Below are positions 10,701-54,655 of a stretch of 64,000 bases of DNA, piece by piece (within the stretch, counting starts at the first letter, position 1; each line of letters opens with the position of its first letter). The stretch is from the NCBI RefSeq assembly GCF_025526975.1, contig NW_026515672.1, forward strand, positions 682,001 through 746,000. Reading direction: 5' to 3'. A model generated the notes under the pieces. It saw only the letters and a program-made list of their open reading frames with translations, was not told where the DNA came from and searched no databases. This stretch comes from Fimicolochytrium jonesii (taxonomy: Eukaryota). The position numbers and the translations under genes are program-made.

Positions 10701-11828
10701 ATGACGGTCTTGCAGTCCATCCGCTCGCGGCTTCCGTCGCGGAACTGGTCCATCTTCTGGGGTGTGACCGGCGGCCTGACCGGCTTGGGCTTTTACGACA
10801 AATATCACCTGAAGCAAGTCCGTGAAGACCTCTCCTCAAGGGCGTCCGTGCTCGCGACCCAGCACATGCCAACTTGGGAAGTGCCAAGGAAAGTAAAGGT
10901 GTTTGTGGCTCCTACCCATTGGGCCAGGTATTGGTTCAAGGAATATGTCAAGCCAGGTGCGTTGAGTTACGTCGGAATTGCAATTTGCGTATGAGCACTT
11001 CTCTAAAGCAAGTCTACGCATATTACTCCAGTCTTTGATGCAGCAGCTCTCGACTACGAAGTGATCGAACCAAAGGATGCGGGTCAAGTGCGGCAGCAGG
11101 TCCGGGATCTGATTTGGAAGGGCAAAGATGAATTTAGGGCACGACCGGCGAATTATGTTTACGAAGCCAACCCGTACAACTCGTTAGCATTAAATGTGTT
11201 ATCAAAACCGACATACGATGCGGCGGAGGGGTTGGTTGCGGTGGGGCCGAACTCATGGAGGGAAGTGCTGAGAGGATTGAATGAGGGAGCTATGTCCGAG
11301 CGAGGAGTGGTGGACGTATTACTCAACGAGAAGGCAGCAGCGGAAGCTACTGCTGAAGCAGCGAAGGAAGTGGCGTCACCACCACCGACAGCGGGTGCTT
11401 CTGATGCAGCGGCGGAGACATCCTCCACATCACCAACGGCAGAAACAGCTACCCCGCCAACTCCACCAGCAACCCCAGCTGTCGCAAAAACCGACCCAGT
11501 CGTCCCTCCATCCCATCTCCTGGCGCAAAACCTTCCGCCATTTGCTCTCCCGTCGCTAGGCTACATAACAGGCCGCAACCAGTCCGGATACTCTGGGTTC
11601 CCAAAACGAATTTGGGGCTATTTCAATGAGCGCTACACGGCGCGCGAGATTGGTGAAGAAGCTTTGAAGATTGCGTTTGATCGTGTGCGCGAGTTCACGC
11701 CTGAGGATGCCAACTTGGGTGCCAAAGATGTGTATGTGCACAAGGACTGGGATGACGAGTTGAAGAAGGTGGTGGGAGAAGTACAGATTGAGGAACCGCT
11801 CTTGAGCAAGCTGTACATTTATGCTTAG
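10701..11828 (+). CDS. TIM54: Mitochondrial TIM22-complex subunit Tim54 (2 exons)
   Basis: RLPSRNWSIFW...YDK...PRKVKVF...WFKEYVKP|VFDAAALDYEV...YFNERY, matching the Tim54 signature. Confidence 0.85.
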
Positions 11829-13586: not shown

Positions 13587-16115
13587 TCACTTGCGAACCT
13601 CCACGTTCACATCCCGCGGGGTTCCGGTCCTAATCTGCCACACCTTCACACCATTGCCCAAAAGACTCACACCGCCAAGAGCAGCGACTCCGTTCCAGAC
13701 AATACCGAGCGGGCCACGCACTTTGATGGCCTTGGGCAAACTGTATGCGAACAGACCGGCAGACGCAAGAGCACCGACATCGTAACCGGTGCGGTCATCG
13801 CCAGTCTGAAGAAGGTATCCAGAGCCGGCGAGAGCAGCAGCAAGACCAGTCAACACGAGAGGCGCACGGGAAGCCACGATCGGGCCCGCTGGGGGGCGGG
13901 ACGCCAAGCTGGTGTAGATACCCGCTCCACCGGTGAGGGCCGCGACGACGTAGTGAGGGAAAGGGTCGACCTTGTTTGCGACGCCGGTGAGGGCTCCTGC
14001 GGCCGTCTCGACTTTGGAGGGGTTGGGGTTGCGGACGTCGACGGTAGGGGCGGATTGAGCGATGGAGGAGGTTTGTGTCTGGATGGCGTGCTTCGCGTCG
14101 CTTACGCGTTGCTGGAGAGCGTGCACGGCTTCTTGGGATTTTTGCTGGGCGGCGTGTGCGGCGTCCTCGGTCTTTTGGCGCAGGGTGGACGTGGCAGAAT
14201 GCGCGGCTTGCGATGCGTCATGCTTGAGATTGGCTGCAGAGTTCTGAATGTCGTGGGCGGTCTTGTCGGCTTGAGAAGATGCGGGCGTTGAGCGGTTAAA
14301 TGGCCACCATCCCGAGGAGGAGGTCTGCGCGTTGGTCTCGGCATCGCGCTTGGCGCTTTCAGCAGCGTGCTTGGTAGACTCCCACGCGTTGTCGGCCTTC
14401 CTCTCGCCTTCCCTAACAGCGTCCTTGACGTCCTTCTTTGCGCCCCACCACGTCTTTTCGGCATCCGCCTTGGCTTTCTCAGCAGTGTGCATGGTGGCGT
14501 CCCAAGCGTGCTCAGCCTTCTTCTCGCCCGCCTTCAATGCATCCTGGGCATCCTTCTTTGCACCCCACCAGGTCTTTTCAGCATCGGCCTTCACATGCTC
14601 AGCGGTGTGCTTAGTAGCATCCCAGGCGTTCTCCGCCTTCTTCTCGCCTTCCTTGATGGCATCCTGGGCGGTCTTCTTGGCTCCCCACCATGTGCGTTCA
14701 GCATCGGCCTTGACAGCTTCGGCGGTCTCGCGGGTCTTCTCGTATGCACGGTCACCAGCAATGTCGGCGCGACGGGAGATATCAGCAGCGCCGTCCTCAG
14801 CCTTCGAGACGGTGCTGTCGATGCTACGCCTGGCGTTGTCGATGCCGTCTTTGGCGACATTGGCGGCGTAGGCAGCGGTGTCTTGAGCCTTGGCAGTGAC
14901 GTCATGAGCGACCTTTTCGGTGGTGGCTTTGGCACCCCACCATGTACGCTCCACCTTTTCTTTCACGGCCTCGGCCTTCTGTGCGGTAGCACCCCATGCC
15001 TTCTCCCCGGCGGCGTCAGCTTGGCGAGACAAGGTCGAAGCGGAATCCTCAGCAGCGCGGACGGTGTTGTCGACGGACCTCTTGGCAGTGTTCAGCTTGT
15101 CCTGTGCCACGGCGGAGGCGTAGTTGGCTGTGTCTTGAGCCTTCTTCTCGACGTCGTGAGCGACTTGCTCGGTCTTGGCTTTAGCGCCCCAGAGGGAGTT
15201 CAGGATGGACGATTTGGTCTCTTCCGCCTTGACTTCAGCGGTATGGACGGTGTTTTCCACGGCGTGCTTGGTATCTGCGGCGAGCTGTTTCGCGCGCTCT
15301 TCTGCGGCATGAGCGGCGTCACCAACGACATGCTTCACGTGCACGTACTCGTCCTGCACGCGGTCGACGGCTTCCTCGGCGGCGTGCTGAGTCTTCTCCT
15401 TTGCGCCCCAAAGCGAGCCAAGAAGGGAGTTTCCAGCCTCGTCGGCTTTGCGAGAGATCTCGGCTGCTTTGTCAGAAGCCTTGTCCGTCGTGACCGCCGC
15501 GGTCCTTTTCACGTCCCTCCAGTCTTCCTTAACGACATCGGCGGCTCCGTTGGTCACTTTGCGCGTCTTGTCCGCAACTTCCTTGCCGACCTCTTCAGCT
15601 TTGCTCTTGGCGCCGAACCATGCGGATGTCCATCCTTGCTTTACTTCCTCGGCCTTTTCCTTTGCGGCGGCTGCAGCACTTTTCGCCTTCAGCTCGGCGT
15701 CGGATTCGATGACGGGGTTGCTCGTGCGGTCCTTCTCGTACTGGTAGCCTTCTGCAGGCGCGGCAAAGTTGGTACCAGTGTACTGCTGCTTGATGTCGTG
15801 CTTGACGTTTTCGGCGCGTTGTTTTGCGTAGTGGGCAATGTCTTCGCCGCTCTGCTCAGCGGCGTGCAGCACGTTCTTGCCTGATGTGCGTTGATCAGTT
15901 GCTACATGGGAGACTGAAGCAAATAGCGAGGGATTTGAGTTAGCTTTACTGTTCTTTTTCTTTTCAATATCCGTCGCCAGATCTAGATCTAGAAACATGG
16001 TATTGCATTGCTTACCGTCCTCCGCAGCCTGTTTCGTCTCGTGAGCGGCGTTTTCCGCATGCTGCTTTGCGTTGAAAGCAGGATCCTCAGACTTTCCGCC
16101 GAACCAGTTGACCAT
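13587..16115 (-). CDS. LEA-like helical repeat protein with C-terminal TMEM14-like membrane domain (one intron about 16015-15882)
   Basis: Ala/Lys/Glu/Asp-rich repeats with recurrent WWGAK motifs; hydrophobic C-terminal ~110 aa. Confidence 0.8.
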   Translation of the reverse strand: MVNWFGGKSEDPAFNAKQHAENAAHETKQAAEDGKQCNTMFLDLDLATDIEKKKNSKANSNPSLFASVSHVATDQRTSGKNVLHAAEQSGEDIAHYAKQRAENVKHDIKQQYTGTNFAAPAEGYQYEKDRTSNPVIESDAELKAKSAAAAAKEKAEEVKQGWTSAWFGAKSKAEEVGKEVADKTRKVTNGAADVVKEDWRDVKRTAAVTTDKASDKAAEISRKADEAGNSLLGSLWGAKEKTQHAAEEAVDRVQDEYVHVKHVVGDAAHAAEERAKQLAADTKHAVENTVHTAEVKAEETKSSILNSLWGAKAKTEQVAHDVEKKAQDTANYASAVAQDKLNTAKRSVDNTVRAAEDSASTLSRQADAAGEKAWGATAQKAEAVKEKVERTWWGAKATTEKVAHDVTAKAQDTAAYAANVAKDGIDNARRSIDSTVSKAEDGAADISRRADIAGDRAYEKTRETAEAVKADAERTWWGAKKTAQDAIKEGEKKAENAWDATKHTAEHVKADAEKTWWGAKKDAQDALKAGEKKAEHAWDATMHTAEKAKADAEKTWWGAKKDVKDAVREGERKADNAWESTKHAAESAKRDAETNAQTSSSGWWPFNRSTPASSQADKTAHDIQNSAANLKHDASQAAHSATSTLRQKTEDAAHAAQQKSQEAVHALQQRVSDAKHAIQTQTSSIAQSAPTVDVRNPNPSKVETAAGALTGVANKVDPFPHYVVAALTGGAGIYTSLASRPPAGPIVASRAPLVLTGLAAALAGSGYLLQTGDDRTGYDVGALASAGLFAYSLPKAIKVRGPLGIVWNGVAALGGVSLLGNGVKVWQIRTGTPRDVNVEVRK

Positions 16116-45629: not shown

Positions 45630-47445
45630 CTACTGATCCTTCTTCACAAACTCCTCTCGTCGCTCAAAAGCGATGTAGCTGGGCTTCTTCGGCATAACAA
45701 TCAAGCACGTGAAATCCATCGGTGGGAAGATGTTTTTCCCCTCGGCATCCTTCATCAGCTGATGCCTGAATTCCCTCACAAACAGCGCAATGATAGTCTT
45801 GATCTGCACATACGCAAACGCTTCGCCAATACACCTGTGCCTTCCTGCACCGAAGGGTAAGAAGTTGGACCGCGCCGATTTTTGCGCAATGTCCACGCCG
45901 TTGATCGTCCACTCTGCTGATCCTTCATCCGCAGACGCGGTGAACCTCGTTGGGTCGAACTTCTCGGGGTCAGGGAAGCGAGCGGGGTCCATTTGCGAGA
46001 CGGCAGGGGAACCGGCGATGAAGTGACCGGCGGGGATGGTGTAGCCTTTGTACTTCACGTCCCGCATGACGAGGCGCATGATGGTGTGGATTGGCGGGTG
46101 CAGTCGCAGGGATTCCTTCATCACGCCGTCGAGGTAGGTGAACTTGCGGAGCTCCTCGTAGGTGAAGTCGGGGAGTTCGTGTGGTGGGGTGTCGGGTTTT
46201 CCAGTCAGGACTTCCGATTGCTCCTTGAGAATCTCATCACTGAAAAAAGTAAGAGTCAATACTCCGACTCAGCTCCATAGCAACCTACATTCATCTACAG
46301 ATGGAGCGGAACTCACATGACATGCGGGTTGTTGGCAAGTTCGAAGATGATCCACGACACAGTGGTAGAACTAGTGTGTTGACCAGCCATCAACGCAGCA
46401 ATCAGCATGTGTGCAATGGCCTTGTCCGACATTTTGGTTCCATCACGGTAGACACCCTCCATCAAAGACTGCAAAATGTCCTTGTTCTCAAAGTCCTCTC
46501 TCTTTCGGCGCTCCTGCAGGATCTTCAAGAACGTCTCGGTCATGATCTTGTTGGCACGATCACGGGCAAAGTACGCCGGCAGAGGCAACCATTTGAAGAA
46601 CACGTTGATCGGCTGGAAGCCTTGGTCGAGGTCGTGGTATAGTTTCGCGACGTTCGAATGCAGCTGCTGTCGGATCTCCTTTCCGAGGAGACAGTGTGAT
46701 GCTGTTCGGATGGTCAGCTCAGCCATATCCGGGAAGAGCTCGTGTTGCGCAGACTTGTTGGGCCACTCCTTGAAGAAGGCGCGGGTCTCCTCCATGATAA
46801 TGGGGACATATGATTTGAAGGCGTCGGTGGTCAGAGCGTCCTTGATGAACCTGAGACATGGAGAACAGTGATTGGTGAGTACGGAAATTCCACATGTAGC
46901 TACTTAGAACCACCACGCTCATACTTTTTCTGCTGCATGAATACCGCGTTATCGACATCGTAAACCACTTCGTCGCCAAAGACCGGGACGGTAAGCTTGT
47001 CATATGCGCCTTCCGCAGTGGCGTCCGCCAATTTGACGTTGAACAGGAAGTGGTTTCCGTCCGGATTCAACACCGCTGTGATCTTACGGCCCATCATCGT
47101 GAAAGTGAAACAGTCTCCATGCTATTGTGAAAGGGCGTCAATAACAGTCGATGCACGTCAAAGTGAAAATTCCCATATTACCTGCTGCTCCTGCTTTTGT
47201 AAAAACTTGACGGGCTGAACGCCAAACGCTACTGCCTGGCCCAAAATCGGCACAGTGTGCGATACGACGGGTGGGAGGACGCGGTCCTTCTCCTGGCTGT
47301 TGTTCTCACGGCCCGACGACATGACGATGACGAGGAACATGAGAGCAAAGAGTCCGCCATACATGTACAGCTTGTCGTTCGGCATGCTGATCAGCCTCGA
47401 GGTCAGGTCAGACATTGTCTGGTTTAGCGTTATGGCGAAGTCCAT
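45630..47445 (-). CDS. CYP51: Sterol 14-alpha demethylase, multi-exon
   Basis: AYDKLTVPVFG, LYHDLDQGF.PIN, LMAGQHTS, KESLRLHPP, LPFGAGRHRCIGE. Confidence 0.96.
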
Positions 47446-48258
47446 TTTGCCGAGTGGAATGCTTGGGAAACAGCAGGGTGCCAAAGAATGGGACACACGC
47501 ACTATCGGTGGGTGTCGTTGCCGATTGATTCCTACTCTACTCTGAGCTGAGACCACAGCTTTTCACCAAGGGCGAGGGTTGGCAGCCTCCTGCTCGATAT
47601 TTGTAGGGTTTTCATGGCGGTCCAGATACTCCACCTCGTTACTTCATCACACTTTGGGAAAAGTGAGGCCACTCGATAACAGGACCACTGCGCTGAATCA
47701 TCCTACCCTTCCATCACACTCATCCATGTGCGACCTAGTATGCGGTAGATACCAGCCCAAGTCCGGGAAGTCGTGGGAGCTATCTGTTGCAAGTCCGTCT
47801 CACAACTGTGGGTCCTAGTGGCGCCACTTTGCTCTCATCACGCCAGTCCAACTGCTCCGCGCGCAACGCGTTCAAATGCAGGCTGCGCACTCCGTATTCG
47901 CGTATATATATAACGGGAATCAACAGGCTTTCTCCCAAGACTGTACAGTACAGCTATAATAACGTTGGGTTGGAGATTTCTGCTGCGTTGTGGTGAATTT
48001 GAAGATTGCCGGACCTCAGCTCCGTTCCCGTCCCCGACCCCGTCCCCGACCCCGCCCCATCCGCATGCCCGTGTTCGTCCTTGTGCTCGTCCTTGTTCCC
48101 GCTTGGGCTTCGGCTCACCTACCTCGCTCTTCAAGTGGCATCGGTGTAATAAGAGTGTATTGTGGTAAGAGGGCAGGCTGCCATCTAGTAGATATCTAGA
48201 TGCATGTAGCCCTCATTTTTCATTCAACCGCATTACAACCCAACTGCATTACAACCAC

Positions 48259-49064
48259 CTTTACCATTCTCCATTCCAAGTTATGAGTGACCAGTAAAGC
48301 ATGCATAACCTGCATGCGGAAGCTAGCCAGACAGACTCGGAGATGAAAGAACGGTAAGAGCGTCGTACCTGGGAAAAGTGGGGCATCGGCCAAATTCCTT
48401 TTACTGTTCTCCATTCCAAGTTACGTGTGGCTACGCTGGTTGCAGGAATCCCTGCGGTGCATCAGCCAGACGGACTCGGATATGGAAGGACAGTAAAAAC
48501 ATCGGCGGCATAGCAAAGGATGAGCTTTACAATTCTCCATTCCAAGTTATGCGTGGTTGACGATGGCAGAGATATCTGCGCGCGTTGACAGCCAGACGGA
48601 CTCGGATATGAAAGAACTGTAAAGAGACATCCATTGTTGGGCTGCAGTGGCCGCCCTGAGCCTTTACAATTCTCCATTCCAAGTTATGCGTGGCTATGGT
48701 AGTGGCAGGAGAGCCTGCACGCGTATCTATAGCCAGACTGACTCGGATATGAAAGAACTGTAAAAGACCGCGGACGGCAGCTCTTCTTCCCACGAGTGCC
48801 TTTACAGTTCTCCATTCCAAGTTATGTGTAGCTATGCGGACGGCAGAAAAACCTGCGCATGTATCGATAGCCAGACAGACTCGGATATGAAAGAACTGTA
48901 AGATTCGTGGGAAAATTGGGCCTGGGAAAATCGCGTCCCAAGTTGACTATCGGGACGCTTTACCATTCTCCGCTCCAAGTTATGCGTTGTGCCTGGGCTC
49001 CGAGCGTATTCCCAGGAGCGTTGAGGCTGCAAGGCAGAACCCGGATGCGAGAAAACAGTAAAGC
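48259..49064. repeat. Array of six ~100-nt imperfect hairpin units with unique spacers (candidate structured ncRNA cluster)
   Basis: Each unit is TTTAC-NN-TTCTCCATTCCAAGTTA...AGCCAGACNGACTCGGATATGAAAGAAC-N-GTAA; units at about 48261-48357, 48399-48498, 48525-48624, 48663-48764, 48802-48901 and 48957-49064 (degenerate). Confidence 0.9.
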
Positions 49065-49261
49065 CGGCGCACGTCAACGATATCCGATTTTACCATCGCG
49101 AGATGCCCGGCTCGGTTCCAAGAGATGAGCTGAGACTGGACGCTACTGCAAAGCTTTGACGTCCATCCAGCACCACCACAAGCCTTGGGACGACCGAATG
49201 GTACTCGAGTGGTGGGGGCGGGCGAGGTTTGGAGTTTACAGATGAGGCAGGATGGGCGACT

Positions 49262-49271
49262 CCTTTTATAA
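49262..49271 (-). promoter_or_regulatory. Putative TATA box (TATAAAAG) pointing toward the hairpin array
   Basis: ccttttataa reads TTATAAAAGG on the minus strand, in an otherwise GC-rich context. Confidence 0.4.
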
Positions 49272-49826
49272 CCGCAGAGCGAGCTGGCGGGCCAGCTGGG
49301 GGTATGGACGTCCCCCAAGCGACACAGCCGGGCCTGGCACGACGTTGGAAGGCCGAAGAAGAAAGGACCTTGGCAAAGGGCGCGCGCAAAGTGATTGCGA
49401 GCGGAAAGGGGGCGAGAAAAGCACCCCCCCATCCGCTCGCTCTTTCCCCCTTTTCTCCCAGGGCCATATTGCACAGCAGCACAGGCCCGAATTTCAAGTC
49501 TCAAAGAGGCCTAACGCGTTTGTGCTCGGTGACGTGTTCCGGTGGAAGGTCACGTGGACGACACGCTGTCGAATTCTGGTCAGTTTATTTTGGGAGGAAG
49601 TTCCGCCTTGTCGAAGCCCTGCCAACCCATTTATAGCTTGTCCAAATACACAGTCGAAATCTTTGATGTTCGGACATTCATACGTATGAGGCGGAAAGCT
49701 TAGTTGAGATTCTCCATAAAAGTCTGCGTCTCCCCAGGCGCGCCCGCTTCATTATACGAAAAATCCACAACGAATACCTCTGGCATCCTCCTAATCTTCG
49801 TTCAATCAGATTCATATTCCCTCAGC

Positions 49827-50443
49827 ATGTCTCAAAACTGCGGCAAGTGTGAAAAGGCGGTGTACCCCACCGAGAAAATTGAAGCAGCGTCTAAGTGGTA
49901 CCACAAGGTGGCGTAGACTTGCGACGCCTTCCTTAGCCTTCACCAAATGCTGACCGTATTCTCTCGGACACTCTAGGGGTGCTTTAAATGCAGTGACCCA
50001 AATTGCAACATCCAGCTGAATCTGAAGACCTTCAAAGCAGTGAACGATCAAATTTGGTGTCAGAAACACACTCCGCAGCCCAAAGCGACGTCAGTCGCGG
50101 ACTCGGTGTCGGTCCTGCACGCCATGCATGCCCCGAAAAAGACCGCGGAAGGCTTGCACAAGACAACTGTGGGAACTGGTGAAACTCCACAGTACGGGTT
50201 GGACACGCTGCAGACGCAGCATGCCTTGTTGACTCCCGTAAGTTCAAAAGATGATTCACTCCTGTACGAAATCTTACTGACCGTCCTATCACTCGCCAAC
50301 AGAAAAAGTCAATCGAGAATTTGGGAAACATTCAGAAGGGTGATGCCACGACTCCTCGGTCCGCACAAGCCCAACCGAAATCTGCTGATGCTCAGGGCCA
50401 AAATCAGGGCCAGCAGGTTGAGCATGAGGAGATCCAAGTATAG
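49827..50443 (+). CDS. Single LIM-domain protein (LASP/LimE-like), 3 exons
   Basis: CGKCEKAVYPTEKI...WYHK|GCFKC..C...L.LKTF...WCQKHTPQPK. Confidence 0.85.
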
Positions 50444-50792
50444 AGTACCGGTGCAACTAGTCCAGTTCTTTCTATAAACCGCCATAGCTATAGGAGCCTT
50501 TCTTATCAATCGCCCTCATGTCTGTTGCTGTAATACAAATACCCGATTTTTTCGATAGCCGTTTACAATTCTTCCATATCTGGTGTGCACATGAGTTTGG
50601 GAGCGTGGGGGACGTGCCGCGAAGATGTTTGTGGAAAAACGTGCATCGGAAAGATTGCAGATATTGAATGGCACTAAGGGGGATACTTCAAGTGTATGTA
50701 CAAGTAAGAAATGAACAAAACTGATGAATGAAACTATGCGATGCTACTCTGCGGAATATATTTCATCTCTGGGCGATCAGGTAGTCAATCGC

Positions 50793-53781
50793 CTACTTGG
50801 CCTTGGAGGGAATCTCCTTCAATTCCTTGGGATCCTCGCCAAATTGCACGATATATTTGTCATGAGCATGCAAGCGGCTCTGATAATCAGAAACGAGAAG
50901 GTGAAGGTCGGTTCCGCGATCGGCCAAATCCTTGTGGTTGCCGTTGGCCTTGCTGCTGTCACGGTATCGCTGGAACGAGCGCAGAGCGTTGATTGCGAGG
51001 TCGAATCGGGAGCATCCGTTGGCTGTGAGCATCTTGAAGGGGGTGGTGGTGGTGCCTTCTTGGTTGTAACCGTGCTATAGTTCAAACCAGCGCGAGTCAG
51101 TCAATTTACTTCCGAGGGGTCGACATGGAGAGCAACGAACGCACCACAGCGAGACGGCCGGCGATGAGAGGCCGGTCGAAAACAAGCCCACGAACAACGC
51201 CGGGGGTACCGTGGAAATTAAAGATGACCGGCTTGTCGGTGGTGAAGAGAGCGTTGAACTCTTCGTCAGAAAGGGCGTGAGGGTGTCTGCCGGTGGCGCT
51301 GAGGATCATGAGATCTGGCGAATGGGAATCCGAAGATCAGTAGGCGTTCTCGGGTAAGTGTCAAGGCGCTGATGTTCTCCCACTCACCGGTGACGTTGAC
51401 CACACGGACACGCAAGTTGGGAGCGTCAATCTTGAGCATCTCCGCCGCCGCAATAACCTCAAACGTGGTCTCGTTCCCGCATCCAACCAACACAACATCA
51501 GGGTCATTGCCATCATGGCTGCTGTATCGGCGCCAGATAGAAGCACCAGCCTTGCAGTGCGCAATCGCTTCCTAGATGAAAGAAACCGGCTGCATCAGAT
51601 CATATTCGCTCCGCCACCGTATGGCTAGCGAGCCACCCATCATACCTCAGGCTCAAGCCAGAGCGGCATAGGCTGTTTCGAACTGATGATCAGGTTGACG
51701 TAGTTGCGAGACGCAAGGCAGTGGTCGATAGTAGTCAGCAATGTGTTAGAGTCGGGAGGCAGGTAGATGCGGACCATGTTGGTCTTCAAGCCTACGAGCG
51801 CGTCGATGAAGCTCGGGTTTTGGTGGGAGTAGCCTGTTGCATTGACAAATCAGTACGAAGCTAGTGGAAATGCCCTTCTCCCAGCCAGAGCAGTTGCGAG
51901 CACCCACCATTGTGCTCTTGCCTCCACAATGTGGAAGATTCGATGTAGTTCAGAGATCCGATATCTTTCCTCCAGTTGGTTTCACGAGCGACCTTTTGAA
52001 ACTTCGAGTATTGGATCACCATGGTTGTGATGATGGGCAAGAATGCCTCGTAACTTGGAAAGAGCGCCACCCGTCCCGTCAAGGTGTATCCTTGCATCCA
52101 TCCTTGGCACTGATGCTCAGACAGCACTTCAATAACACGCCCGCCCTTGTTGCTGCAGAAAGGGTCCCATTGGAAGTTGCGCGTCGTAGATTTGAAGACG
52201 CCGGAGAGCTTGTTGCTGTCGAGTTCATCAGGAGAGAAGATGCGGAAGGACTTCGGGTTCTTCTCAATGACTTGGGCAAGGTACTCCCCACATGCGTTCA
52301 TGCACGCCTGCCATTCATCCATCTTGACCGTTTGAGGTTTGGTGAGGGGACGGAAGTCGGGCAGATCGAGAGGTTTGTAGCCGGCGTAGGTCTTCTCGTT
52401 GAGTCCCATCATTCTCTCCTTCCTCGGGAACGTCTTCAGGACGTCCTCCACCGGCACGCCATCCTTGAATAGCTCATCAAACTTGTAGCTCTTCAACCAC
52501 GCGTCCAATGCTTTGAACTCCTCGTCATCCGATTTGACTTTGGGCAAAGGCACTTGGTGCGAACGCCAGGTTCCTTCGATTTGATGGCCGTGCACCTCCT
52601 TCGGACCTGTCCAACCCTTGGGAGTACGCAAAATGATCATAGGCCAGCGCGGCTTGACAATGGGGTTGCCTGAGCGTGCGGCTTGCTGTATGCGGCGGAT
52701 TTCTTTGTGTGCCCTTGAATTTTTATTGATGAAGATTAGAATCATCGCTGCTTTGGCAGTCTGCATTGAGTGGATGCACTCACCAGTCCATGGACGCAGC
52801 CATGTCGGCATCAATCACGTCCATGTTCTCAACAATCCGGACTTGGTAGCCATAGCCTGAGAACAATGCGGACAGCTCTTCATCGCTGTTCGAAGAGTCA
52901 GGGTGTCAGTGATACAAACCGGCCACTTGAAGCCTTTCATGTGAGTGAACTTACGACATGGATCCGAAAACTGTGGGCTCGGCGATCTTGTACCCATTAG
53001 CGTTCAAGATGGGAATGACAGCTCCACTTTCCTTAGGGTCGAGGTACTTGTACGAGTGCCACGCGGTCGAGGTTGGTCCGGTCTCGGCCTCACCATCTCC
53101 AACGATGCAGGTCACGATCAAATCCGGGTTGTCGAAAACAGCTCCGAAACTGACTGCGAGTGCGTATCCGAGCTCACCACCTTCGTGGATGGCGCCAGGA
53201 ACCTCCGCGTTGACGTGACTCGGGAAACCTCCCGGCCACGAGAAGCCACGCAGGAGCTCGTAGAGACCCTTGCTAGACGTCGCATACCTCTGGTCAAACT
53301 TTCCCAATGTCCCCTCCAGGTACAAGTTTGCCAAGACGGCAGGTGCGCCGTGACCAGGTCCAGTTACGAGGAACATGTCAAGATCATGTTTGCGGATGAG
53401 ACGGTTGCAGTGCGAGTAGATGAAGGTGATGGCCGGACATGTGCCCCAGTGCCCCAGCAGCCTGTCTTTGATGTGATCTTTCGACAGAGGCTCCTTCAGA
53501 TCTACGTTGTCCTTCAAGAAGATCATGGACGCCGCAAGGTAGTTTGCAGCTCGGCGAGCTTTGCGCATGTTTTCGAAATCCTTCTCATCTTCGGCAGTGA
53601 TCAGCTTTTGGATATCGAGTTGGACAAGCAAATTTTCGGTGTTGAGTGGTGGGGACGTTTTGTTGAAGATCCCTGGCGGGAGAGGGCCAGGGTGGTCGGC
53701 GTCGGTTGATGGTTTGCCCTTACGGGTGGCGTCCTGCGTCTGGTCGTTGGAGCGCGGGGCTTCGGCCGTTGGTGGTGACAT
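50793..53781 (-). CDS. xfp: Xylulose-5-phosphate/fructose-6-phosphate phosphoketolase, multi-exon
   Basis: RLLGHWGTCP, GPGHGAPA, HEGGELGY, GDGEAETGP, LRTPKGWTGP, FSPDELDSN, WRQEHNG. Confidence 0.95.
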
Positions 53782-54655
53782 GTTGAATGTGTATGTTTCG
53801 TGCGTTGACTTTCTCGATCTTATGAACGGCTCCAGAGAAATATGGATGCTATTATATTGTTTGTGCTGCTGTGAGAGGGGCTGGACTGGCGATGCGATGC
53901 TTTCTGTGTAGGAGACCCTTTGGCTACCCCACCATTCATATATCCTATAGATCTGGACCTCATTCCTCCGCACCGAAGTTGCATGACAAGGCACCGCAAA
54001 ACATGAACACCCCATCACGTCACATCCGGGCGTTACATGTTCAAGCCTGCGGCCCGCGTGAAAAATCGAACATCCGTCCCCGTTCACAGAATCACAGACG
54101 CTCCGTCTCGCAGCCAGTGAGGAGAAAGGATTGGTGCATTTGTGACGAGCACTTTGCGTCCCCGACTCCGAAGCGCTCCATACGGAGCAGAGTTCACCAA
54201 CAGAACGTGGCTTTCCCGATGGCTGAATTGTGAATGCGGGCTGCGCACATCCCACACGCGCGAGAATGACATCAGTCCCTCTCTGACTGACAGCGATCGC
54301 CTTATCGGTGCTGCGCCACGACGCTGTCAATCCTCATCGCGCTGTCGATTTTCGCAACGCAGCAGGACCGCTCTCCACCTCGTTAACGACCTCCACTCCC
54401 GTTGACGACCTCTCCCGCCCAATACGATCGCAAGACGCCGTCAAAAGCGTGTCCACAGTTCTTCGAACGTACAGCTTTAACCGGCTGTTTCACGCTATTC
54501 CTTATCTTTCGGACTGTCTCAGCGGGCGGCTGCTGGGAGGAAACCTAGGCAAGCCCATTACCAGCCTGAGCCCAGACTCAACAAAAATATCGAAGTGTAG
54601 TTGCTGTTTTAGTGCAAAAAGCAGAGACCTTCATTTCTGACTTGCACAGCGCAAA

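Follow-up and report, generated by a model that had tools for sequence, protein, structure and literature searches.

The window analysed here is a 64,000-nucleotide stretch of a contig of Fimicolochytrium jonesii, a fungus of the Chytridiomycota (order Spizellomycetales, family Powellomycetaceae), and positions are counted from its first letter. At 48259..49064, in intergenic DNA between two ordinary genes, the window carries six related hairpin units in tandem. The protein-coding genes in the vicinity of this array are the following.

45630..47445, minus strand: sterol 14-alpha-demethylase (CYP51), downstream of the array, its last exon being 100% identical to an F. jonesii protein
49827..50443, plus strand: gene for a small LIM-domain protein (LIM profile match), divergent from the array's candidate promoter
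50793-54333, minus strand: phosphoketolase (XFP) gene, convergent with the LIM-domain gene

In the LIM-domain gene, profile positions 1-24 and 26-53 fall on consecutive exons, each match lying below the Pfam cut-off and the exon joins having been made by eye. Between the array and CYP51 there is a palindromic TATATATA at 47903-47912 that could serve either strand, and it is followed on the plus strand by a donor-like G/GTAAGA at 48165. Other repeats in the window include a perfect 87-nt tandem duplication (27109-27282) and a 120-nt three-copy repeat within a long reading frame (14359-14712).

A tandem array of six hairpins

A preliminary description of this DNA, made from its letters, had reported two conserved blocks, A and B, that recur six times and fold each unit into one long stem. 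Follow-up analysis bears this out: a repeat finder recovered six copies of block A with start-to-start spacings of 140, 126, 137, 138 and 158 nt, identical to the periods reported earlier, as well as five copies of block B, the sixth of which (in unit 6) was recovered by alignment, and every one of the six units folds into a long hairpin whichever strand is taken. Among 200 dinucleotide shuffles per fold, none folded at least as well as the real unit in any of the 12 folds. All six extended units have stems of 46-54 bp and an MFEI between -0.73 and -0.91; outside the array, just 2 of 4184 windows of 135 nt reach both a stem length of 40 bp or more and an MFEI of -0.72 or lower. The six-hairpin array is real and lies far beyond what chance would produce. 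Comparably long and stable hairpins are predicted in only two other windows, 2821-2955 on the plus strand (46 bp) and 11366-11500 on the minus strand (41 bp), and neither a mismatch scan nor a covariance model found a seventh copy of the array unit within the 64-kb window.

The six paralogues are packed into 0.84 kb. When the whole array is folded, the hairpins stand nearly back to back, with unit 2 abutting unit 3 without any free spacer between them. Listed in minus-strand order, the units are as follows.

48941..49080, minus strand: hairpin unit 6, the first on this strand, most divergent in sequence with structure intact (-64.6 kcal/mol, 51 bp, AU>GC and UA>CG compensatory pairs)
48783..48920, minus strand: hairpin unit 5, basal stem of 13 bp in the fold
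48645..48782, minus strand: hairpin unit 4, basal stem of 13 bp in the fold
48508..48641, minus strand: hairpin unit 3, basal stem of 9 bp in the fold
48382..48515, minus strand: hairpin unit 2, basal stem of 10 bp in the fold
48242..48376, minus strand: hairpin unit 1, the last on this strand, basal stem of 9 bp in the fold

Unit 6 had been regarded as degenerate, and it is indeed the most divergent in sequence, yet its minus-strand folding energy is the lowest of all and its changes include compensatory ones. The array has no match to a known RNA family in Rfam, and no tRNA-like or coding signal was found in it.

Hairpin anatomy, conservation and covariation

Each unit of ~135 nt is predicted to comprise a basal stem of 9-13 bp, a duplex of ~24 nt, an upper stem of 15-20 bp and a short loop, which is, as modelled, the anatomy of a pri-miRNA. 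The distance between the two arms is near-constant across units (51-57 nt), and in the candidate guide/star duplex, whose register was set from conservation, 21-23 of 24 guide bases are paired, with two 1-nt bulges. The units differ most in their flanks, where mean identity is 24% (5') and 25% (3'); it rises to 44% at the apex and is highest in the arms, with 81% for the 5' and 92% for the 3' arm. The 3' arm also has fewer variable columns (4/24 vs 12/27 in the 5' arm; Fisher p=0.04), and the 24 nt of this arm begin with UAACUUGG, which is invariant in 6/6 units, as would be expected of a 5'-U start and a seed. The candidate guide arms, as delimited by conservation, are listed below.

48959..48982, minus strand: 3' arm of unit 6, 24 nt, candidate guide, variant at positions 10-11
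48801..48824, minus strand: 3' arm of unit 5, 24 nt, candidate guide
48663..48686, minus strand: 3' arm of unit 4, 24 nt, candidate guide
48526..48549, minus strand: 3' arm of unit 3, 24 nt, candidate guide
48400..48423, minus strand: 3' arm of unit 2, 24 nt, candidate guide
48260..48283, minus strand: 3' arm of unit 1, 24 nt, candidate guide

Conservation is not confined to the two arms, as units 1-5 share an unchanged upper 5' segment, GUCUGGCU. A model with one duplex does not need this segment to be invariant, so that the guide register may differ from the one adopted here; the segment may represent a processing signal, a second product or the sign of such a different register.

Judged from the aligned copies, the array is structurally selected and maintained by compensatory change. 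On the consensus structure, 93.1% of 216 cells are paired (37-48% in slid controls), and one paired column holds as many as four pair types (AU, CG, UA and UG). Two-sided changes affect 7/36 pairs, two of the compensatory columns being due to unit 6 alone, and the covariation score was reached by 0/500 shuffles, a result to be taken as supportive and not as a probability, because the six copies are related, which the shuffle control ignores, and the structure was derived from the same sequences.

The variation in the guide has no wobble-position periodicity by eye, and the loops have no consensus of the Rnt1-type NGNN tetraloop kind, likewise by eye. Clusters of C/D or H/ACA snoRNAs and SECIS elements are classes marked by conserved box motifs and variable guide pockets. 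These were considered and rejected: there is no Rfam match, no such boxes occur in the invariant columns (by eye), and it is the paired parts that are conserved, not the loops.

Linkers and cognate basal stems

The linkers had been described as unique and essentially unrelated to one another, and as regards their sequence this stands: they are 28-56 nt long, with a mutual identity of 24-28%. They are, however, not free, for each linker is divided between two neighbouring hairpins, supplying the 3' strand of one basal stem and the 5' strand of the following one; the predicted basal stems measure 9, 10, 9, 13, 13 and 10 bp in units 1-6. When every unit's 5' flank was joined with every unit's 3' flank on a common core stem, pairing of flanks with their own partners reached -89.8 (mean -62.9), the second-best of 720 permutations on the minus strand. 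Flanks at random identity thus still pair with their own partner, which indicates that selection has kept a basal helix without regard to its sequence. These cognate basal stems, as read from the flanking sequences, are the strongest new evidence for a precursor that would be recognised by its shape.

Transcript strand and flanking signals

The array had been read on the plus strand, but the minus strand is better supported; block A, in reverse complement, would then correspond to the likely guide arm. We consider it probable that the transcript has this orientation. Many positions that are A-C mismatches in the plus-strand fold can pair as G-U on the minus strand; slightly different alignments gave a consensus energy of -34.8 for the minus and -20.0 for the plus strand; the z-score with flanks is better on the minus strand in 6/6 extended units (40 shuffles each); and the cognate-flank test, which ranked 2/720 on the minus strand, gave 12/720 on the plus strand. 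Raw folding energy, flanks included, is lower on the minus strand in 4/6 units and on the plus strand in 2/6. With the minus strand favoured, unit 6 becomes the probable first hairpin and not a decayed last one. Two motifs on this strand, both chosen post hoc, could delimit a transcript.

49263..49270, minus strand: TATAAAAG, candidate Pol II TATA box, ~190 nt upstream of unit 6, one of three exact copies in 64 kb on both strands; function putative
48219..48224, minus strand: AATGAA, weak candidate poly(A) signal just after unit 1, one of 15 on the minus strand in 64 kb; function putative

In the accessible part of a study of Aspergillus oryzae, AAUGAA is the commonest A-rich hexamer before poly(A) sites, yet it occurs in 6% of transcripts (PMC3111234), and a motif that marks so few sites there lends weak support here. 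A 16-nt tandem duplication at 48225-48256 lies just after the last hairpin and directly before AATGAA; each of its copies holds UGUA on the minus strand, and the duplication may be part of a 3'-end signal.

Two further structures lie on the promoter side. Between the candidate start and unit 6 there is a weaker, unrelated stem at 49060-49140 (z -1.2), and upstream of the TATA box there is a separate GC-rich hairpin at 49385-49450 (z -3.7 on the minus strand) that is unrelated to the array. A search of Rfam yielded three weak miRNA hits (E 3-7), all on this separate hairpin (49394-49463) and none on the array.

A matching site in the neighbouring 3' UTR region and searches for relatives

No convincing target of the proposed guide was found in the window, the best candidate reaching -19.9 vs -32.9 for a perfect match. 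For the opposite arm there is one counterpart, which is the best arm match in the window outside the array.

50562..50583, no strand assigned: 17/19 match to the 5' (star) arm of units 3-5

This site lies where the convergent LIM-domain and phosphoketolase genes face each other, between their stops, i.e. in a 3' UTR region. It is located 210-230 nt past the phosphoketolase stop on the minus strand, where 19 consecutive bases pair with the 5' arm of units 3-5; in plus-strand orientation it comes ~120 nt after the stop of the LIM-domain gene. The match, the length of which was picked after it was seen, beat 100/100 column-shuffled arms nearby and 30/30 window-wide, and an empirical background of 1.2 Mb contained no site of at least 16/19, with an extrapolated tail of ~0.1 expected per window. 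The site was also tried as a seventh hairpin and rejected, as it is unfolded (z -0.5 to 0.3) and has no hit by the covariance model. The site may be targeted by either arm, may have been the source from which an inverted duplication arose, or may match by chance, and it is a candidate link to the array.

Searches for homologues in other sequence collections returned no further array. Metagenome contigs contained 0 matches to a 22-base pattern; viral contigs contained 0 matches to a 19-mer of block B and 17 lone matches to a 17-mer of block A, none of them with a partner arm, which were treated as chance; and prokaryote genomes contained two lone matches without support from the covariance model. 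In 618 kb of sequence from 97 loci, just two of them chytrid-like, the same model had 0 hits. With respect to synteny, 80 of 427 confirmed CYP51 loci were compared, two of which (L018 and L019) look chytrid, and no array is present near CYP51 at L018, the sole chytrid-like locus with upstream DNA among those 80. Because so few of the compared loci look chytrid, these blanks say little about relatives.

Alternative explanations

The main alternative, which we hold to be possible though doubtful, is a structured non-coding RNA array that acts through intact hairpins of ~100-135 nt, for instance as protein-binding modules or decoys, possibly released from the intron of a non-coding host gene and possibly on the plus strand, without small RNAs. 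Such modules would account for conservation that reaches past one duplex into the upper 5' segment and for the fixed bulges, and the plus strand folds too (z -1.7 to -7.0 for the extended units), with the TATATATA at 47903 and the donor-like site at 48165 available to it. A guide, however, is the better fit for a constraint that is strand-asymmetric, spans a block of Dicer size and starts from an invariant 5' end, and the absence of a matching Rfam family likewise counts against intact modules; as for an intron on the minus strand, its splice signals would be poor, with weak donor-like sites before the array and no acceptor with a preceding branch-point motif just past it. The hairpins also lie on the CYP51 strand, ~800 nt upstream of its start codon, and might be imagined as a cis-acting structured leader of the CYP51 mRNA or as altering CYP51 expression via read-through, but AATGAA follows the last hairpin, CYP51 is preceded by a separate TATATATA at 47912, and 2.5 kb upstream of CYP51 on the likely chytrid contig L018, from a distant relative, contain no array; this explanation is very unlikely. 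An element acting at the DNA level is similarly improbable. A tandem MITE cluster and ssDNA hairpin recombination sites (comparable to attC) had both been raised in the preliminary description, and either would fit conserved imperfect inverted ends around a variable middle and folding on both strands. Nevertheless, the flanks beside the conserved ends are complementary and not duplicated (by eye), so that no target-site duplications are seen, no further copy exists in 64 kb, identity within the unit drops from 92% to 25% while pairing persists, which points to a structure selected in the divergent parts as well, no recombinase or transposase family appears among 56 frames scanned, and neither of the single matches found in prokaryote genomes is a copy of the hairpin.

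The two remaining possibilities are weaker still. The mutually unrelated linkers of 28-56 nt would suit a CRISPR-like repeat-spacer array, with hairpins as scaffolds and linkers as guides; this proposal is largely refuted, since the supposed spacers are taken up as unit-specific basal stems, composed of cognate strands (rank 2/720), and the hairpins stand almost back to back. Least credible is a gene for a repeat protein, whose linkers might or might not hold small introns. There is an open frame of 139 aa over units 3-5, and 3/5 linkers read GT...AG on the minus strand (by eye); this frame is the longest from stop to stop inside the array, in agreement with the earlier statement that no ORF spans it. 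The coding explanation is disfavoured by periods that break the frame (2, 0, 2, 0 and 2 modulo 3), by the absence of the AG from units 1, 2 and 6, in which the corresponding base changes together with the one it pairs with, and by the lack of a homologue among 87 candidates and of a Pfam match. One unrelated repeat-rich hit (E=2.5e-5 in 1.84 billion proteins) owes its score to summed repeats.

A candidate miRNA-like cluster

Among the options put forward earlier, a paralogous pre-miRNA cluster is the best supported by the present models, with the minus strand and the reverse order of units favoured over the plus-strand orientation given for it. This interpretation has been strengthened by covariation, by the cognate basal stems, by strand-asymmetric conservation and by flanking motifs of the Pol II type. 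We assign a probability of roughly 0.6 to a polycistronic Pol II precursor from which Dicer would release a single miRNA-like family. The gene, non-coding and located on the minus strand, would be transcribed by Pol II from the candidate TATA box at 49270 as far as position ~48200, giving a transcript of ~1 kb with six back-to-back hairpins of ~135 nt, and Dicer (RNase III) would cut each of them. It is known that Drosha measures its cut from the basal stem, while plant DCL1 cuts long precursors downward from the loop. In the proposed pathway, the first cut may accordingly be set either by the basal stem of 9-13 bp or by the upper segment of ~24 nt down from the loop. The product would be a miRNA-like RNA of ~22-24 nt from the conserved 3' arm, all copies belonging to one family, and this 5'-U guide, beginning at UAACUUGG, would load into Argonaute and silence complementary RNAs. 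Six copies would raise the dose, with unit 6 yielding a variant of the same seed.

Several features expected of a miRNA or milRNA gene are present: i) the predicted hairpin is stable and unbranched; ii) it contains a predicted duplex of 20-24 nt whose mismatches are few and whose bulges are small; iii) the guide arm is its most conserved part; iv) the locus is neither a known structural RNA nor a coding region nor, within the window, a transposon. As for the enzymes that would be required, Geranomyces variabilis is presumably a member of the same family as F. jonesii. In the accessible part of a survey of 19 chytrid proteomes, Dicer was detected in 14/19 and in none of the other five, which include G. 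variabilis, with three Dicers each in Powellomyces hirtus and in both Spizellomyces proteomes; F. jonesii is not among the proteomes in the 12 supplementary files searched (PMC12663654). Microprocessor components (Drosha/Pasha) have no strong candidates in fungi according to the available text of one study (PMC6206976), and that of another mentions a few divergent Drosha-like candidates (PMC12663654).

A more far-reaching proposal combines several of these elements into a miRNA system of the chytrids' own: a same-seed polycistronic cluster in which one of several Dicers, unaided by Drosha/Pasha, would measure each hairpin from a basal stem of the animal kind. The cluster would have been born by inverted duplication of the 3' UTR site at 50562 and would still regulate the neighbouring LIM-domain or phosphoketolase mRNA. 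Taken as a whole, this proposal is speculative and rather unlikely to be correct in every part.

Comparison with known systems

Same-seed polycistronic clusters of animals, such as miR-430 and miR-302, are processed by Drosha-Pasha, and the basal stem used by the animal Microprocessor measures about 11-13 bp below the duplex. The array resembles these clusters in its one (predicted) transcript, its tandem paralogous hairpins, its invariant seed and a sequence-free basal stem of about one helical turn, predicted here at 9-13 bp. Unlike animal pre-miRNAs, the units have a much longer stem above the duplex, and they are found in a kingdom without strong Microprocessor candidates (see above). In plants, miR159 and miR319 have long-stem precursors that DCL1 cuts from loop to base, young MIRNA genes are born by inverted duplication of their target, and precursors are seldom six-fold tandem. 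The array shares with these long-stem precursors a processing proposed to be by Dicer alone, an upper stem of about one further duplex length and an arm resembling a nearby transcribed sequence; it differs in having no sequence relation to them and in its six-fold tandem arrangement, and its target link is a lead.

Outside these groups, the miRNAs of ichthyosporeans, which are likewise unicellular opisthokonts, offer a parallel to the candidate miRNA genes described here, but the accessible account has them co-occurring with Drosha and Pasha and supported by reads (PMC6206976). The closest fungal precedent, as far as the text available to us covers it, is a cluster in Rhizophagus irregularis, where scaffold 28 carries seven miRNA-like loci on one strand within 8.3 kb, with hairpins of 102-226 nt and products of 19-24 nt, 6/7 of which start with U (PMC6399891). 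Both cases concern an early-diverging fungus with several hairpins of ~100-230 nt on one strand, the products in Rhizophagus being mostly 5' U; on the other hand, the Rhizophagus loci are spread out, differ in their mature sequences and are supported by reads, whereas the present array has one shared arm and products that are predicted from sequence.

Fungal mi/milRNAs were re-assessed by Johnson et al. (2022), who, in the part of the article available, covered 41 species of Ascomycota, Basidiomycota, Glomeromycota and Microsporidia, with no chytrid, and found that less than half of 1727 loci passed basic standards; the words 'chytrid', 'cluster', 'tandem' and 'polycistron' do not occur in the main text (PMC9757828). 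As in the loci of that re-assessment, the hairpins described here are intergenic, without an Rfam match, subject to compensatory change and possibly lineage-restricted, but the inter-duplex distance, usually <20 nt there, is 51-57 nt here. A search of the literature on miRNAs of chytrids and zoosporic fungi, on the genus and on polycistronic milRNAs (including the accessible parts of PMC12030539 and PMC13533422) revealed no such locus; subscription journals lay mostly outside this search, and absence from print is unproven.

Significance

The existence of true, precisely processed miRNA families in fungi is unsettled, and a six-copy paralogous cluster with selection on both the guide arm and the basal stems is an unusually clean candidate. 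In conclusion, the six-hairpin array is probably built like a polycistronic same-seed miRNA cluster, as a candidate based on predicted structure. If this is true, it would be the first such cluster found reported for the Chytridiomycota within the literature searched. Since these flagellated fungi stand near the base of their kingdom, the array would bear on how often miRNAs arose among opisthokonts and on whether measuring from a basal stem needs Drosha.
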